A stretch of 64,000 nt of DNA from Verrucomicrobiia bacterium. GTDB lineage: Bacteria; Verrucomicrobiota; Verrucomicrobiia; Chthoniobacterales; Chthoniobacteraceae. A program made the position numbers and the translations under genes. Shown one piece after another: positions 4,618 to 54,702 of this stretch. Numbering within the stretch: position 1 is the stretch's first letter; each line of letters begins with the position of its first letter. The stretch covers positions 2,823 to 66,822 of the forward strand of contig JBEIUI010000001.1 of NCBI GenBank assembly GCA_040374425.1. Reading direction: 5' to 3'. The notes under the pieces are model-generated. The model made no database searches and was not told where the DNA came from. It saw only the letters and a list, made by a program, of their open reading frames with translations.

Positions 4618-7119
4618 ATGGACCGCAAAGATTTACCCCCAGCCATCGCCCCCTCGGCGACACCGATTGAGAACCAGGGAAGCCAGCGCCCGCCCGAGGG
4701 CACTCGCGGCTACCAATCTTGGGTGGACGAAAAAAAAACCGGGGTTTGGCAGGTCTCTTGCATCAGGGGGGCCCCTGTGATGCAAACTCCCCACAGCGAT
4801 CCGACTCATATTGAGCTGCTCCAGCAGCGCTCCTGCGCTTTCGAACACATCGAGGACGGGATCATCGTAACCTCGCTGGATGGCGTGGTTTTGGACTGGA
4901 ACAAGGGAGCGGAGCGGCTCTTCGGATGGAGCCGTGAGGAGATGCTGGGAAAAACTCCGGCAGTGCTGCACCGCCCCTGCGATGCGGACGAGCTCACAGG
5001 CTCCATCAACGCAACGGCGGCGCAGGAGGGCCGTTGGAAGGGGGATGTTTCGTTTGTGCGCAAGGACGGTTCCACGGGCATTTGCGAGACCACCACGGTA
5101 GCCATGCGGGACGAGCAGGGTCGGATTTTTGCGACCATGGGGATCAACCATGATGTGACGGCGCAGAAAGCGATCGAAGGCAAGTTGGTGGAAGAAAAAC
5201 AGATTCTGCGGACGCTCATCGACGCGCTGGATGACGTGATTTTTTTCAAGGACAGTGAAGGCCGCTACATCATGGTCAACGCCGCGCATCGCAAAATCTG
5301 GAAAAAATCAGAGCGGAGCCCCATTGGCCTGACCGATTTTGATTTCGAGGGGCTCCGGACCAACGCGGCGCGCTACGCGAAGGACGACCAGACCGTAATC
5401 GCAACCGGCAAGCCGATCACCAACCGGGAAGAACCCTTTACCCGGGACGACGGCAGTTCGGGCTGGTTTCTCACCTCGAAATATCCGCTCCATGATTCCG
5501 CTGGGCGGGTGATCGGCGTGGTCGGCATGGCCAGGGACATCACGGAATGGCGACGCACGGGACGGGAACTGGCCGACGAACGCGAGAGGTTCAAAACCAT
5601 CGTGGATGCCCTGCCTGATGCGCTCTTTCTCAAGAACCGGGAGGGCCGAATTACCCTCGAGAATAAGGCAATGGCCAAACTTTTCGGGCCGGAATCCGGG
5701 CGTGTTCTCAAGACGCCTTTCGAGGAGCCAATTCCCAGGGAACACGCGGAACGTTATGCCGCCGACGACCGCAGCGTCATCGAGACCGGCCAGCCCGTGA
5801 TCAATCGCGAGGAGCCTTTTCTGACCACGGCAGGCACGACGGGTTACCTGCTGACCTCCAAATACCCGATCCGCGACAGCGGCGGCGAGATCGTGGGAGT
5901 GGTGGGGGTTTCGCGGGAAATCACCGAAATACGCAAGGCGGCGGCGGAACGGCGGGCCTTTGAGCGCAAACTCCAGGAAACGCAGAAGCTCGAGAGCCTG
6001 GGGGTCCTGGCGGGCGGGATCGCGCATGACTTTAACAACCTCCTTACCGGCGTCCTCGGCAACGCCAGTCTGGCGAGCATGGAACTCCCCCAGGAATCCC
6101 CCGTGCAAGAGCTTCTCAAACAGATTGAAATCGCGTCGGTCCGCGCGGCCGACCTCTGCAAGCAGATGCTGGCCTACTCGGGCAAAGGCCGGTTTGTCAT
6201 GCAGCGGCTTGATCTCAACGCGGCGCTGAACGAGACGACCAAGCTCCTGCAGGTGTTCCTCAACAAGAACGCCGTCCTCAAGATGCAGCTGGCACCGGCG
6301 CTTCCGGCTGTGGTTGCCGATCCCACGCAGATGCGCCAGGTGATCATGAATCTGGTCATCAACGCCGCCGAGGCCATCGGCGAACGCAGCGGCTACCTGA
6401 CGCTCACCACCGGGGTCGTGCGGGCCGACGCCCGATACCTGGCCGAAACCCATCTTTCACCCGATCTGACCGAAGGCGACTACGTCTACCTCGAAGTCGG
6501 AGACACCGGCAGCGGGATGACCCCGGAGGTGGCTGCGAAAATTTTTGACCCGTTTTTCACCACCAAATTCACCGGCCGGGGCTTGGGCCTGGCAGCTGTC
6601 TTGGGGATCGTCCGAGGCCACCGGGGGGCGTTGAAGGTTTACACAGAACCGGGTGTCGGCACGACCTTCAAAGTCCTGCTGCCCTGCGCCGACGGTCCGG
6701 TGGACGATCCGGGCATGGAGCGCCCGGCAAGCGCCCAGTGGCGGGGCCGCGGCTTGGTGCTCATCATCGACGACGACGAGACCACCCGGGCCACCACGGC
6801 GCGGATGCTCGAGAGCATGGGCTTTGAGGTGCGCCTCGCTGCAGACGGTAGGGTGGGCGTAGAAGCATTCCGCCTCACTCCAGAGGAGTTTCAGGTGGTG
6901 CTGCTCGACCTCACAATGCCACGCATGGACGGGGCGGATGCCTTCACGGAAATCCGCCGGATCCGGCCCGATTGCCGGGTTCTGCTCATGAGCGGCTTTA
7001 ATGAAGCGGACGCCGTGGCGCGGTTTGCCGGGAAAGGGCTTGCCGGCTTCGTCCAGAAGCCTTTCCGGCTCCCGGATCTCCGGGAAAAAGTGCAACAAAT
7101 CCTGAGCGCCCCCGCCTAG
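4618..7119 (+). CDS. Hybrid sensor histidine kinase (three PAS modules, HisKA, HATPase_c, C-terminal receiver)
   Basis: H-box GGIAHDFNNLL, G-boxes DTGSGM and GRGLGLA, receiver LIIDDDE...LLDLTMPRMDG. The start could lie further downstream (MQTPHS). Confidence 0.85.
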   Translation: MDRKDLPPAIAPSATPIENQGSQRPPEGTRGYQSWVDEKKTGVWQVSCIRGAPVMQTPHSDPTHIELLQQRSCAFEHIEDGIIVTSLDGVVLDWNKGAERLFGWSREEMLGKTPAVLHRPCDADELTGSINATAAQEGRWKGDVSFVRKDGSTGICETTTVAMRDEQGRIFATMGINHDVTAQKAIEGKLVEEKQILRTLIDALDDVIFFKDSEGRYIMVNAAHRKIWKKSERSPIGLTDFDFEGLRTNAARYAKDDQTVIATGKPITNREEPFTRDDGSSGWFLTSKYPLHDSAGRVIGVVGMARDITEWRRTGRELADERERFKTIVDALPDALFLKNREGRITLENKAMAKLFGPESGRVLKTPFEEPIPREHAERYAADDRSVIETGQPVINREEPFLTTAGTTGYLLTSKYPIRDSGGEIVGVVGVSREITEIRKAAAERRAFERKLQETQKLESLGVLAGGIAHDFNNLLTGVLGNASLASMELPQESPVQELLKQIEIASVRAADLCKQMLAYSGKGRFVMQRLDLNAALNETTKLLQVFLNKNAVLKMQLAPALPAVVADPTQMRQVIMNLVINAAEAIGERSGYLTLTTGVVRADARYLAETHLSPDLTEGDYVYLEVGDTGSGMTPEVAAKIFDPFFTTKFTGRGLGLAAVLGIVRGHRGALKVYTEPGVGTTFKVLLPCADGPVDDPGMERPASAQWRGRGLVLIIDDDETTRATTARMLESMGFEVRLAADGRVGVEAFRLTPEEFQVVLLDLTMPRMDGADAFTEIRRIRPDCRVLLMSGFNEADAVARFAGKGLAGFVQKPFRLPDLREKVQQILSAPA

Positions 7120-50022: not shown

Positions 50023-51180
50023 TTACAAGAGCCTTCCTGAGAAGAGCAGTAGACCGAAACAAACGGCGTGGAAAGTGAGGAGGACGTTCACCCAGCGCCA
50101 GACCGGGCCTTCGGGCCAGCGTTTCTGGTGTTTATCCCACCTCGCAAACGCGTCGTAACCGGAGAGCAGAGCGGCGTGGTAGATCCCGTAGAGGATGTAA
50201 TGGAGCTGCGTGCCGTGCCAGACGCCCATCAGGCCGAAAGTCAGAAACAGCCCGAGATAGGAGGAGGTGTATTTGCCCTTAAACCATTTGCCCTTGGAGG
50301 CGGCTAAAAGGAACCGCATGTAAACGTGGTCCCGGAACCAGAAGGAGAGCGACATGTGCCAGCGATTCCAAAAATCGCGGATGTTCGCCGCAAGGAACGG
50401 CAGGTTGAAGTTCTCGGGGGTGTGGACCCCGAAGAGATAACTCACGGCAATCGCAAACGCGCTGTAGCCCGCAAAATCAAAGAAGAGGTAGAAGCTGTAG
50501 GCATACATGGAGCTCAACAGCTCCAGCACGCCCCCGCCCGTGCCTACCCGGTCTAACCAGTAAGTTTTGATGAGCGCCGCGAGAATGAATTTGTAGAGGA
50601 ACCCCCGGAAAACCCGCTCCACCGCCCCGTCGAGATCCTGGAGAAACTCCTGGCGGTTCCGGCGCCGATTCCAGTCCTGCGTGAACCGGCGATAACGATC
50701 GATCGGGCCGGAGGAAAACGTCGCAAAGAAAAACAGGTAGGCCGCGAACTGGGCCGGGGAGAGGGATTTGATGACTCCATCGTGGATGCTGAAAATGACA
50801 TCCAACGCCCGAAACGTGACGTAGGAGATGCCGAGAAACCCGAAAGCGGTGCCCGGCCAGAGCTCGGGCAGGAACTTCGCCGCGGCGAGAGGCGCAATGG
50901 AGAAAGCCAAGGCCCAGGGGAAAAGCCGGCGGGATTTCCATTTTAAAAACGCCCAGCTCAGCGCGCCTTGATAGACGAGGAACCCGAGCGCGATGGTCAA
51001 CTCGCGCACCGCGATGCCGGGGCGAACGACCAAGGGATGGTTGAGATGCACCAGGAGCATGGCCCCGCTCGCCAGGAGCGCCCAACGCGCGTTGGCCTTT
51101 CCGAAAAGCCCCAACACAACGGTGGGCACCAGCAGATAAAGCAACAGCCCGAAATAGGTGAAATCAGCGTAGGGGCTCAT
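50023..51180 (-). CDS. dltB: MBOAT-family D-alanyl transfer protein DltB
   Basis: The N-terminus MSPYADFTYFGLLLYLLVP is DltB-like. MBOAT core FWNRWHMSLSFWFRDHVY with the conserved His. Polytopic. Confidence 0.9.
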   Translation of the reverse strand: MSPYADFTYFGLLLYLLVPTVVLGLFGKANARWALLASGAMLLVHLNHPLVVRPGIAVRELTIALGFLVYQGALSWAFLKWKSRRLFPWALAFSIAPLAAAKFLPELWPGTAFGFLGISYVTFRALDVIFSIHDGVIKSLSPAQFAAYLFFFATFSSGPIDRYRRFTQDWNRRRNRQEFLQDLDGAVERVFRGFLYKFILAALIKTYWLDRVGTGGGVLELLSSMYAYSFYLFFDFAGYSAFAIAVSYLFGVHTPENFNLPFLAANIRDFWNRWHMSLSFWFRDHVYMRFLLAASKGKWFKGKYTSSYLGLFLTFGLMGVWHGTQLHYILYGIYHAALLSGYDAFARWDKHQKRWPEGPVWRWVNVLLTFHAVCFGLLLFSGRLL

Positions 51181-51260
51181 GGGTGGGCAGGAGTGCTACA
51201 TGATTCCAGCCTCAGGAGCCCACGGTTTTTTAACCAAACCGCCCAGGCGCACCCTCCGGA

Positions 51261-52727
51261 TCAGAGCAGCTCGGCCAGTTTCCGACGATCGGCCTTGCCG
51301 TTGGCTGTCATCGGGAACGCCTCCAAAAACCTGAACTTCCGGGGCACCATGTAGGCGGGCACGCGCTCGGCCAGTCCGGCCTTGAGCCGGCTCGAAAAGT
51401 CGAACTCCGAGCCCTCCCAAGCCACGGCCGGCACGACAAACGCCATGAGCGATTCGATCCGGTCGCCCTTGCTTACAGGCAACACCACGGCATCGGCTAC
51501 TTCGGCTAAGGCGCGCAGGTTGGCTTCCAGATCCCCCAGCTCAATCCGGTACCCATTGACCTTCACCTGTCCGTCCATGCGCCCCTCAAAAAAGAGGAGG
51601 CCGTCGCGTTCCCGCCCCCAATCACCCGTGCGATAAGTGCGTGCAGGCGCCTCGTCGAAAAACACCTTGGAGGTGAGATCTTCCCGCCCCAGGTAACCCG
51701 GGCTCACGTTGGGTCCCGCGATGAGGATCTCGCCGCGTTCGCCTTCCGGCGCCCTCTGGCCGTCTTCGGAGCAAATAAAAACCCGGGTCCCGCGCATCTC
51801 GCGGCCCACCGGCAGGGGCGAATAACGCTCCAACACATCGCGAGTCACCTGAATGGAAGTCGTGGCCACGGTCGCCTCGGTCGGGCCGTAGGTGTTCCAC
51901 AGGGACGCCTTGGGAAACCGCTCCAGCAACTGGGAGGCGGTCTCAGGAGCGAGCGTTTCTCCGCAGAAAAGAAACCGGCGCAGCGTCGGCACCATCGCCT
52001 CCCTGAACCCGCGCTCGATCAAACACATCTGGGCAAAGGACGGAGTGGAAACCCAAGTGGTCACCCCCGAACGCCCCAGCGCTTCGTAGAGTTTTTTGAG
52101 GTTAGCCACCTCCTCCTTGGTGATGCTAAAGAGCGTGCCGCCAGTGACGAGGCTCAGGTAAAGGTCCATCACCGAGAGATCGAAGGAGAACGGGGCCTGG
52201 TTGAGAAAGGTTTCGCCCGGAGCAAGGAACGATTGTTCGTCGCACATCCAATCCACAAACACCTCGAGATTGGCCAGGGTGATAATGACCCCCTTGGGTT
52301 CGCCGGTGCTACCCGAGGTGAAGAGGATATAGAACGGGTCCTGCCCCTCCACCCGGTTCAACCCGCCCCCCCCCCCCGCCGCAGTCTCCGCGCACAGCGT
52401 GGCGATCCGCTCCGGGTTCAGCACCACAGCCGCTCCGGAGCTCTGCACAATGCGTTCGATGCGATGCGCAGGGATCGATACGTCGATCGGCACATACGGA
52501 CGCCCCGATTTCACGGCTGCCAGGAAAGCGACGAGCATTTCCGGCTCTTTATGCCCGGTCACCGCCACTGGCGCGCGGCTGCCCGGGAACTGGGTCTCAA
52601 GCCAATGCGCCAGGGAATCGGACCGTTCGAGAAGTTCGCCGTAGGTGAGCTGGCGGCCCGCACTCACATGCGCAAGGGACTCCGGCGCGACTCGCCCCCA
52701 ATGATCAATGCGATCGAGCAGATGCAC
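51261..52727 (-). CDS. dltA: D-alanine--D-alanyl carrier protein ligase DltA
   Basis: FTSGSTGEPKGV, QAPFSFDLSVMDLY, TWVSTPSFA, YRTGD, and a C-terminal NGKADR. GTG start, 5 nt after the dltX stop. Confidence 0.9.
   Translation of the reverse strand: MHLLDRIDHWGRVAPESLAHVSAGRQLTYGELLERSDSLAHWLETQFPGSRAPVAVTGHKEPEMLVAFLAAVKSGRPYVPIDVSIPAHRIERIVQSSGAAVVLNPERIATLCAETAAGGGGGLNRVEGQDPFYILFTSGSTGEPKGVIITLANLEVFVDWMCDEQSFLAPGETFLNQAPFSFDLSVMDLYLSLVTGGTLFSITKEEVANLKKLYEALGRSGVTTWVSTPSFAQMCLIERGFREAMVPTLRRFLFCGETLAPETASQLLERFPKASLWNTYGPTEATVATTSIQVTRDVLERYSPLPVGREMRGTRVFICSEDGQRAPEGERGEILIAGPNVSPGYLGREDLTSKVFFDEAPARTYRTGDWGRERDGLLFFEGRMDGQVKVNGYRIELGDLEANLRALAEVADAVVLPVSKGDRIESLMAFVVPAVAWEGSEFDFSSRLKAGLAERVPAYMVPRKFRFLEAFPMTANGKADRRKLAELL
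52366..52377. repeat. C12 (G12 on the coding strand) homopolymer inside dltA
   Basis: Counted directly: 12 consecutive C at 52366-52377. They encode the GGGGG run in ...TAAGGGGGLNRVEG.... Confidence 0.9.
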
Positions 52728-52732
52728 AGCGC

Positions 52733-52876
52733 CTAGAACCCTTGGTAAACAAACGAGGGTGTGGAAAAATCGCCGCGCCCATAGATGGCGAGCAACCCCG
52801 CGATGATCGCGAAGTAATAGAGCGCCAGAAGCGCGATCCGTGCACGAGGCCTCGCCTCAAACCAAGAAACTGTCAT
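52733..52876 (-). CDS. dltX: DltX-like small membrane protein (47 aa)
   Basis: MTVSWFEARPRARIALLALYYFAIIAGLLAIYGRGDFSTPSFVYQGF has a single TM helix and ends in F-V-Y-x-x-F, like the DltX FIYNEF C-terminus. It sits 4 nt after dltC and 5 nt before dltA. Confidence 0.7.
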   Translation of the reverse strand: MTVSWFEARPRARIALLALYYFAIIAGLLAIYGRGDFSTPSFVYQGF

Positions 52877-52880
52877 CCCG

Positions 52881-53138
52881 CTACGCGGCCAAGCGGCCAA
52901 GCACGTCAGCCACCAGTTGACGAGGGGTGGCCCAGTTTTCCCGTTCAAATTCAGCCGGCGAGATTTCCACGCCAATCTCAGCTGAGAGCGCGACAATGAG
53001 CTCCACGGTCTTCATGGAATCGAGCACCTGCAGATCATACAAGGCAAGGTCCGGATTCGAACACACCTCATAGCTTTCAGCGACGTTGGCGAGGACTTCG
53101 AGGATGCGTTCAGCGGTATCGGGGGCTACGAGGTTCAT
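52881..53138 (-). CDS. dltC: D-alanyl carrier protein DltC
   Basis: 85 aa. LDSMKTVELIVALSAEIGVEISPAEFERENWATP parallels the B. subtilis DltC segment LDSFGTVELLLAIE...EFDRDVWNTP. The Ser in DSM is the phosphopantetheine site. Confidence 0.88.
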   Translation of the reverse strand: MNLVAPDTAERILEVLANVAESYEVCSNPDLALYDLQVLDSMKTVELIVALSAEIGVEISPAEFERENWATPRQLVADVLGRLAA

Positions 53139-53223
53139 AGGGATGAGGGGAGGATGGGGGGCTGGGGGTACTGGGTTCCGGAGGAGGGAATTCGGGAGAC
53201 GGGGGAGGGGAATCTTAGGGGAC
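53139..53223. other. Polypurine, G-run-rich tract on the + strand (polypyrimidine leader on the dlt mRNA strand) directly upstream of dltC
   Basis: About ten runs of at least 3 G within roughly 85 nt, read directly from the sequence. The region abutting the dltC ATG has no purine-rich Shine-Dalgarno on the coding strand. Confidence 0.85.
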
Positions 53224-53421
53224 TTGCCTTTAACGTATGATCGAATCCCTTGAAAACTTGGAGCTTTTTTTTACGGCGGGAAAAAACCCGGTGCCGCATC
53301 GGGCCCGCGAACTGGAAACATTGCTTTATCTGGCAAGACAACACATTGGGAACACTCGAAAGTTAAGCGTTCAATGCCTCTGACGTGCCGCAGACGCTCT
53401 CTGCGCTTCAATCCGCCTCGA

Positions 53422-54702
53422 TCAAGGCTTCTCCGGGACCTCACCGGAGGCCGGTGCGGAAAGAAATCGCCCGTGATAAAAGTCATCGAGTGCCTTGTTG
53501 TAATAAAGCCAGCCCTCGCCGCTGAGGTGATCCAGGAAATCCACGGTGAATCCCGGGCTGGCTTCGCTGGCCGGGAAATCCGCCAAGGGGATGTTGTATT
53601 TCGTGGCCAACTTGCGCAAACGTCCCGTGTAAGCGGCGCGGGAAGAAGCCGAAATTCCGTACACCTCCAGGCGAATATCCTCGATGGGAATACTCAGGAG
53701 AAGCGGCTGGGCACCTAATTCAACAAACGTCCGCAGCAGCAGCTCAAAATCGGTCCATTCGCGGGCCCTGACGAGGGACTCCATGAAAACGAGATCCCGG
53801 GAGGACTTCGGGATTTTTTTCTTGGCGATCTCTTTGAGTTTGGACTGAACGGCGGCGGCATTGACGAATTTGGCGGCCTTTTTGAGCAGCTCGCTCCAAT
53901 TGAGCCCGCGCAAGCCACGCCGGGGAGTGGGGTTGAGTTTTTCATCCCACTCGAGGATGTACAGAGCCGACTCTACGTGATCCTGCATCCGGGCCACACC
54001 GGAGTGGAGTTTGCCGAGGGGCCAGACCAGCCCGTAAAGAATGCGATCGAGCCAGCGGTCTCTGGCGAGGTGACTCAGGGTAAATCGGAGAAGGGGCCGC
54101 GAATTGAGCGTTTTCGGAAAAGCCAACATGCGCCGGGCGACGTCGCGCTTGAGTGCGTGACTTAACTCCGAGCTAAAGGCCATTTCATAGGCCTGCATTT
54201 CTGAGAAATTGCCCTCGTAAAACGAGGGATCGAAAACCTCGGTAAAAAACCAGCCCGGTGAGATGGAGAAAGCCAGTTTTTTTCCGCGCACGCCAGCCCC
54301 CACCCCGGCCACCTTCTGGAGCACCGCCAGCGAGGTTGTCCCGGGTTTACCCACGGGAAACACCCGGAACCCGGTGGGATAATCCGCGAAGAACTGGTTG
54401 GCGTTGTTGGGCATGGTTTTGTGCAGCTCGGAGCTGCCGTAAAACACGAGGAGCTCGGGCTCTTCAAACGCGTGTCTCTGGAGGACGACCCCCTGAAGTT
54501 TCTCGGCGTTAAACTCCGGGGCCAGTGCATGAATGTAGCGCTTTTCGAGGCGCTCACACCAAGTCCAGCAAGCCCACACCAGCAACGCCCCCAGCAGCAA
54601 TGCACCCCCTGCGGCGATCAAATTCCTGGCGCCCGCATCGGCAACCGCCGCCTTCCGGGGGGCCACCGGGCTACCTGGCTTTTCTGAGGAAGAATCGCTC
54701 AT
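53422..54702 (-). CDS. dltD: DltD-like (SGNH-like) D-alanyl transfer protein
   Basis: N-terminal TM anchor, LVFYGSSEL (the DltD GSSE nucleophile motif), and C-terminal FTVDFLDHLSGEGWLYYNKALDDF (the D-x-x-H motif). Confidence 0.8.
   Translation of the reverse strand: MSDSSSEKPGSPVAPRKAAVADAGARNLIAAGGALLLGALLVWACWTWCERLEKRYIHALAPEFNAEKLQGVVLQRHAFEEPELLVFYGSSELHKTMPNNANQFFADYPTGFRVFPVGKPGTTSLAVLQKVAGVGAGVRGKKLAFSISPGWFFTEVFDPSFYEGNFSEMQAYEMAFSSELSHALKRDVARRMLAFPKTLNSRPLLRFTLSHLARDRWLDRILYGLVWPLGKLHSGVARMQDHVESALYILEWDEKLNPTPRRGLRGLNWSELLKKAAKFVNAAAVQSKLKEIAKKKIPKSSRDLVFMESLVRAREWTDFELLLRTFVELGAQPLLLSIPIEDIRLEVYGISASSRAAYTGRLRKLATKYNIPLADFPASEASPGFTVDFLDHLSGEGWLYYNKALDDFYHGRFLSAPASGEVPEKP

Follow-up and report, generated by a model that had tools for sequence, protein, structure and literature searches.

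The dlt operon and the homopolymeric tract in dltA

The minus strand of the window (the whole 64-kb stretch of DNA analysed here) carries a complete dltD-dltC-dltA-dltB operon, in which all four genes lie within 4.7 kb and the DltB, DltC and DltD profiles score above their cut-offs. The gene for the D-alanine--D-alanyl carrier protein ligase, dltA, occupies positions 51261-52727 (488 aa, GTG start) and is followed 80 nt downstream by dltB at 50023-51180, which encodes an MBOAT-family membrane protein of 385 aa (TIGR04091, 433 bits, cut-off 375). Upstream lie dltD at 53422-54702 (426 aa; TIGR04092, 164.6 bits, cut-off 150) and dltC at 52881-53138 (D-alanyl carrier protein, 85 aa; NF003464, 73.7 bits, cut-off 68), the latter placed by mapping the gene call of conspecific contigs to the window. 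An 87-aa ORF at 52733-52996 was considered for dltC and rejected, as it has no family match. The window belongs to a 3.33-Mb metagenome-assembled genome (MAG) of 193 contigs, 61% G+C and 84.8% completeness, and the host is a soil or freshwater Verrucomicrobium of the Chthoniobacteraceae; a complete dlt operon (50023-54702) is found in this diderm. The named relatives of the DltA protein come from Chthoniobacteraceae and Chthoniobacter (Verrucomicrobiota), and a search of 24 family genomes recovered full-length orthologues of 62-91% identity in 12 of them.

Judged by its sequence, the ORF at 51261-52727 is DltA, with a predicted role in D-alanine activation and the loading of DltC. It scores 567.3 bits against NCBIfam NF003417, above the curated family cut-off of 476, and 553 bits against the equivalog TIGR01734, slightly below the cut-off of 559.85. 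The structures of Bacillus cereus DltA (3FCC/3DHV) align with it over the full length (E 1.5e-150), and the adenylate-forming core motif is present as the P-loop FTSGSTGEPKG at residues 136-146 (pattern TSGSTGxPKG). The enzyme resembles its Bacillus cereus and Bacillus subtilis counterparts (PDB 3FCC, 3DHV, 3E7W) in its whole-enzyme alignment (E ~1e-150), in all core motifs and in its DltB, DltC and DltD partners. It differs in its diderm host, in the gene order dltD-dltC-dltA-dltB, and in the loop before the P-loop strand, which is shorter here and composed of five Gly.

These five residues are encoded by a G12 mononucleotide tract. On the plus strand, it reads as twelve C at positions 52366-52377, bounded by a G at 52365 and another at 52378; on the coding (minus) strand of dltA, the sequence is GCG GCG GGG GGG GGG GGC GGG TTG. 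The tract covers nucleotides 351-362 of the 1467-nt coding sequence, 24% into the gene, and starts at the third base of codon 117 and ends at the second of codon 121, within the codons for Gly118-Gly122. In the translated context, ETAAGGGGGLNRVEGQDPFYILFTSGSTGEPKG, the Gly run precedes FTSGSTGEPKG by 14 residues. An earlier note on this DNA had described such a run, its Gly coding and its place just upstream of the motif, and both the sequence and the ORF translation agree. It is the only G/C run longer than seven bases in the window, and it is of the kind (a mononucleotide tract of about eight or more bases within a coding sequence or promoter) that simple sequence repeat (SSR) phase-variable loci carry. 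The longest A/T homopolymer of the window is an A9 at 4730-4738.

The description of the site as a variable loop in other DltA enzymes also holds. None of 13 DltA orthologues from other species (49-91% amino acid identity) has the homopolymer, and the segment, bounded in them by ...RIA... and ...R-V-x-x-x-D-P-F-Y..., varies in both length and sequence. The three closest protein clusters have ERVKK, ERLKK and GGRLGG at the site of the Gly run. In the alignment to Bacillus cereus DltA, the Gly-run segment falls in a gapped, low-confidence stretch right before the strand that leads into the P-loop. Because no orthologue (n=13) has the homopolymer, the tract is, on this comparison, young and species-specific, and it is sited in what appears to be a change-tolerant loop. 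The nearest (sister) species has GGC GGG CGG TTG GGC GGA there (G G R L G G), a G-rich but interrupted stretch, to which a few changes could have yielded the G run. Although just 27% of the Gly codons in long ORFs are GGG, a pure G12 underlies two of the nine Gly5 runs there, which suggests that the Gly run derives from the G run and not the reverse.

Length alleles and a probable slipped-strand hotspot

The conspecific set comprised all recorded contigs with an identical DltA, DltC, DltB or DltD, which gave four assemblies besides the MAG and five in total, at nucleotide identities of at least 99.6%. Searching via dltC, dltB and dltD is independent of the dltA frame and thereby removes a bias toward intact DltA. 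The comparison of tract length among related strains, which the earlier note had proposed, reveals polymorphism: three of the five consensus assemblies carry G12, one G9 and one G13, a small sample in which three members have adjacent ENA analysis numbers and perhaps come from one study. Besides the MAG, G12 is found in ERR9973201 (Logan; 99.94% identity to the window over 8.2 kb, 5 mismatches) and in ERZ17175178 (MEGAHIT; 99.92% over 13.5 kb, 11 mismatches, coverage 24.7). The G9 allele of SRR28411067 (Logan; 99.82% over 13.5 kb, 21 mismatches) is in frame and encodes four Gly. The G13 allele of ERZ17175176 (MEGAHIT; 99.63% over 2.2 kb, 7 mismatches) is the only OFF allele, the other four assemblies being in frame, and it lies on a 2,181-nt contig at only 6x coverage that ends 231 nt past the tract. 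In each of the four conspecific alignments, the tract alone holds indels relative to the window. The haplotypes carrying G9 and G13 have private SNPs, so these two alleles cannot be put down to noise in the consensus of one population. At the protein level, the DltA 90% cluster has three members, one of which is 487 aa long with four Gly instead of five.

Further conspecific contigs were sought via DltC, DltB and DltD and their 90% clusters, and none was found; the other members of the DltB cluster differ by at least 14 residues. A search for fragment ORFs of frameshifted alleles, with the C-terminal 363 aa as query, matched only the full-length cluster and other species, and there is no record of the 139-aa G13 product as a called protein. 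An exact scan of genome and metagenome contigs for the two 17-nt flanks with a gap of 4-24 nt gave no match. Over 13.5 kb, the five conspecific assemblies differ at 33 single-base sites, 7 of which fall in the dltD-dltC spacer (window 53139-53421, 283 nt), and this spacer holds a T8 run at 53265-53272.

The consequences of a length change follow from the reading frame. G9, G12 and G15 are in frame and alter the loop by one Gly at a time (four with G9, five with G12). G11 and G14 are predicted to stop at 122-123 aa, and G10 and G13 at 138-139 aa, in all cases before the P-loop, so that the claim of the earlier note that a slip of one base in either direction would truncate DltA is upheld by the predicted products of 122 or 139 aa. 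Truncated products would be without the whole nucleotide-binding and C-terminal parts and should be inactive, judging by how adenylate-forming enzymes are built.

Taken together, the tract is real and is probably an incidental slipped-strand hotspot in a tolerant DltA loop, able to turn dltA off. The G12 run would have arisen within the G-rich stretch of a structurally tolerant, hypervariable loop, and slipped-strand mispairing in replication would make its length differ between strains. Gains or losses of three bases would lengthen or shorten the loop by a single Gly in an otherwise intact enzyme, whereas one-base changes would be frameshifts that terminate DltA at residue 122 or 139, ahead of the ATP-binding P-loop, presumably abolishing D-alanine activation and, with it, envelope D-alanylation. 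Such frameshift alleles may arise and then be mostly purged, with the tract not being maintained by selection as a contingency locus. We infer the slippage mechanism, the loss of function of the truncated products and the purging of OFF alleles. The site, as a mutational hotspot, can behave as an ON/OFF switch; any adaptive phase variation there is putative.

If the instability is real, the tract would be a built-in hotspot that repeatedly yields cells without D-alanylation as well as enzyme variants with a shorter or longer loop. It would also offer a natural handle for studying the function of the dlt pathway, and its D-alanyl acceptor, in a diderm Verrucomicrobium. Transcriptional slippage or programmed frameshifting at the tract could in principle cause leaky expression; G runs tend to slip less readily than A/T runs.

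Genomic background of G/C runs and the contingency-locus reading

The 3.33-Mb assembly contains 169 G/C runs of at least 8 bases, 47 of at least 9, 17 of at least 10, 8 of at least 11 and 4 of at least 12, leaving out three poly-C runs (61, 62 and 87 nt) at contig ends. With a continuation ratio of ~0.28-0.29, approximately 1.0-1.2 runs of 12 bases or more are expected. The four observed include two within ~110 nt of a contig end and two internal ones, in dltA and in a gene for a PilQ-like secretin (Pfam Secretin). Runs of at least 12 bases also occur in 11 of 24 related genomes (12 of 25 with this one), usually as one to six tracts per genome. The run alone is no statistical anomaly in this lineage. 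At the genome scale, the scan for long runs, also proposed earlier, does not place the dltA G12 clearly above chance, and the suggestion that such a run is by itself the signature of a contingency locus finds no backing: run-length decay predicts about one, about half of the relatives have such runs, and the 13 orthologues are without the tract, so that neither over-representation against the genome background nor retention across lineages is seen.

The genes that carry long tracts are equally disparate. Tracts of at least 10 bases elsewhere in the genome fall in the secretin gene (78% into the gene), a MoxR-like ATPase gene (87%), the genes of a transglutaminase-like protein, a DUF1552 protein (at its very last residues), a PAS histidine kinase, a DUF7133 protein and a HAD hydrolase (at its start or ahead of it), and ORFs that match no family. 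The relatives' tracts of at least 12 bases lie in genes for a PAS/GAF histidine kinase, an FGE-sulfatase-domain protein, planctomycete-type PSD/PSCyt proteins, the tail of RNase HII, a Gly-rich RRM protein and an HlyD-like protein, or outside recognized genes. No dlt gene is among these tracts of the relatives and no gene class recurs, which argues for sporadic, apparently mutation-driven tracts. A phasome, that is many long tracts in surface genes, was rejected, the tracts in this genome and its relatives being in unrelated genes at varied positions.

The second internal G12 (G000:C188:12909-12920; L042:6910-6921) codes for Gly5 in the PilQ-like secretin and serves as a control. Twelve G are called there in each of the four assemblies that extend that far, namely the MAG, ERZ17175178, ERR9973201 and SRR28411067, while the contig of ERZ17175176 starts 89 nt after it. 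Its invariance, even in the strain with the dltA G9 allele, counts against an incidental hotspot, as not every such tract is unstable. The instability at dltA could instead hint at relaxed or diversifying selection at dltA specifically, and a path from G12 to G9 via single-base slips crosses two OFF states, which would fit tolerated switching. As a side observation, the secretin gene clusters with Amuc_1100-, Amuc_1102- and PilM-like genes, an arrangement that resembles the type IV pilus-like locus of Akkermansia.

A rival reading takes the tract as a selected contingency locus, in which reversible slippage would toggle envelope D-alanylation at high frequency within populations, the ON state providing resistance to cationic peptides or metals and the OFF state an escape from phages or agents that need a D-alanylated surface. 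We regard this as unlikely. It gains from the three length alleles in five conspecific assemblies, one of them a frameshift, from the position of the tract in the first quarter of a gene for a surface-modification pathway, where OFF alleles are predicted to be null, and from the unchanged secretin G12 in the same strains. It loses from the absence of the tract in the orthologues of 13 other species and in the nearest protein clusters, from the lack, here and in related genomes, of either an excess of long tracts or a phasome-like group of surface genes, and from the alleles themselves, four of five consensus alleles being ON and the sole OFF allele lying on the 6x contig. The phase-variation switch put forward in the earlier note is therefore upheld in part: the length polymorphism, one out-of-frame allele and the truncation by a one-base change speak for it, whereas the run as a signature does not stand, orthologues lack the tract and most alleles are in frame.

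Phase-variable genes with homopolymeric tracts are well known from Neisseria, Haemophilus, Campylobacter and Helicobacter, including poly-G tracts in the surface-glycan genes of Campylobacter jejuni and poly-G/C tracts in opc, porA and lgt of Neisseria. The dltA tract is similar to these in being a long G/C run in the 5' part of a surface-modification gene, in varying in length between close strains, and in the truncated null product predicted for a one-base change, a likeness at the level of consensus sequences. In contrast to those genes, the host here is a free-living Verrucomicrobium with 61% G+C, in which chance alone would give about one such run per genome, and the tract is neither accompanied by similar tracts in surface genes nor conserved in related species, with most alleles in frame.

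The porA and opc tracts are mentioned in a study of Streptococcus pneumoniae (PMC5361624), which also provides the closest precedent for dlt. There, dltA, dltB and dltD gather loss-of-function mutations, including frameshifts, in invasive isolates (Lees et al. 2017, PMC5361624), and loss of D-alanylation can thus be tolerable or even favoured. Such recurrent losses lend weight to a contingency role, as dlt can be dispensable and under fluctuating selection; the likeness lies in the inactivation by ordinary mutations, frameshifts among them. However, the pneumococcal mutations are scattered over dltA, dltB and dltD with no link to a repeat, whereas the indels observed here trace to a single hotspot tract. 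Among the papers of the searched library, none describes a repeat-driven phase switch in dltA, which also weighs against a contingency role, none deals with dlt in Verrucomicrobia, and none mentions the sample accessions. That the G tract is a real contingency switch of envelope D-alanylation in a free-living diderm Verrucomicrobium seems very doubtful; if true, no earlier case of a dlt operon under repeat-mediated phase variation would precede it, and it would be evidence that environmental Chthoniobacteraceae vary their surface charge by phase variation, for example against phages or cationic antimicrobials.

Assembly breaks at long tracts and dltA annotation

The length differences could also be technical, with a tract that is stable in cells and calls that vary through polymerase stutter in library PCR, Illumina errors at long G runs (in two-colour chemistry, no signal is read as G) or assembler choices at low coverage. 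The MAG itself gives grounds for this, with five of its eight G/C tracts of at least 11 bases within ~110 nt of a contig end, and so does the G13 call, at 6x and close to the end of its contig. Poly-C runs of 61, 62 and 87 nt stand at or near MAG contig ends (G000:C22:18188-18248, G000:C58:1-62 and G000:C167:1-87). They resemble poly-G artefacts of two-colour Illumina chemistry that escaped trimming, and G runs in this assembly therefore need care. The Logan assembly of SRR28411067 also breaks at long tracts. At the secretin G12, one of its contigs starts 4 nt before the tract and another stops 10 nt before it, and at the C11 in the MoxR-like ATPase gene (C137:7761-7771), a contig ends 4 nt short. 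The contig that stops before the secretin G12 (contig 90302; end of L045) shows read-through of the Nextera transposase adapter at its end. The earlier warning that the tract is an assembly risk is thus borne out by both the MAG and the Logan assemblies. Since these data sets seldom get across tracts of 11-12 bases without difficulty, the risk is a real one, and the G13 call at 6x is provisional.

A technical origin of the polymorphism as a whole nonetheless appears quite improbable. The difference between G9 and G12 is three bases, unlike the usual error of a single base, and the G9 call comes from a 15.9-kb contig of the most divergent haplotype (21 SNPs). The SRR28411067 assembler failed at tracts of 11-12 bases yet crossed that of dltA, which fits a truly shorter G9 there. 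Behind the G13 call stands a consensus haplotype that carries five private SNPs over 2.2 kb, and the secretin tract is called as 12 in four assemblies, so that length is reproducibly callable.

For annotation, the tract has a practical side, as a one-base error or variant at the tract makes an intact dltA look like a pseudogene. Because the tract flips the apparent integrity of the gene, calls of dltA as absent or broken in MAGs of this species deserve a check at this site. A congeneric genome has its dltA spread across several frames (L015, G008:C2:470265-474149), with TGA and TAG stops within the match; this genome has ~10 contigs and 54% completeness, and the split may reflect indel errors of a long-read assembly rather than a pseudogene. 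A further small polymorphism in repeat length concerns a His/Asp-rich repeat (HDHDH...) in a CobW-like gene beside cobN, which differs between two strains by an in-frame 3-nt indel and several substitutions (L049:2816-2875 versus L043:10633-10689).
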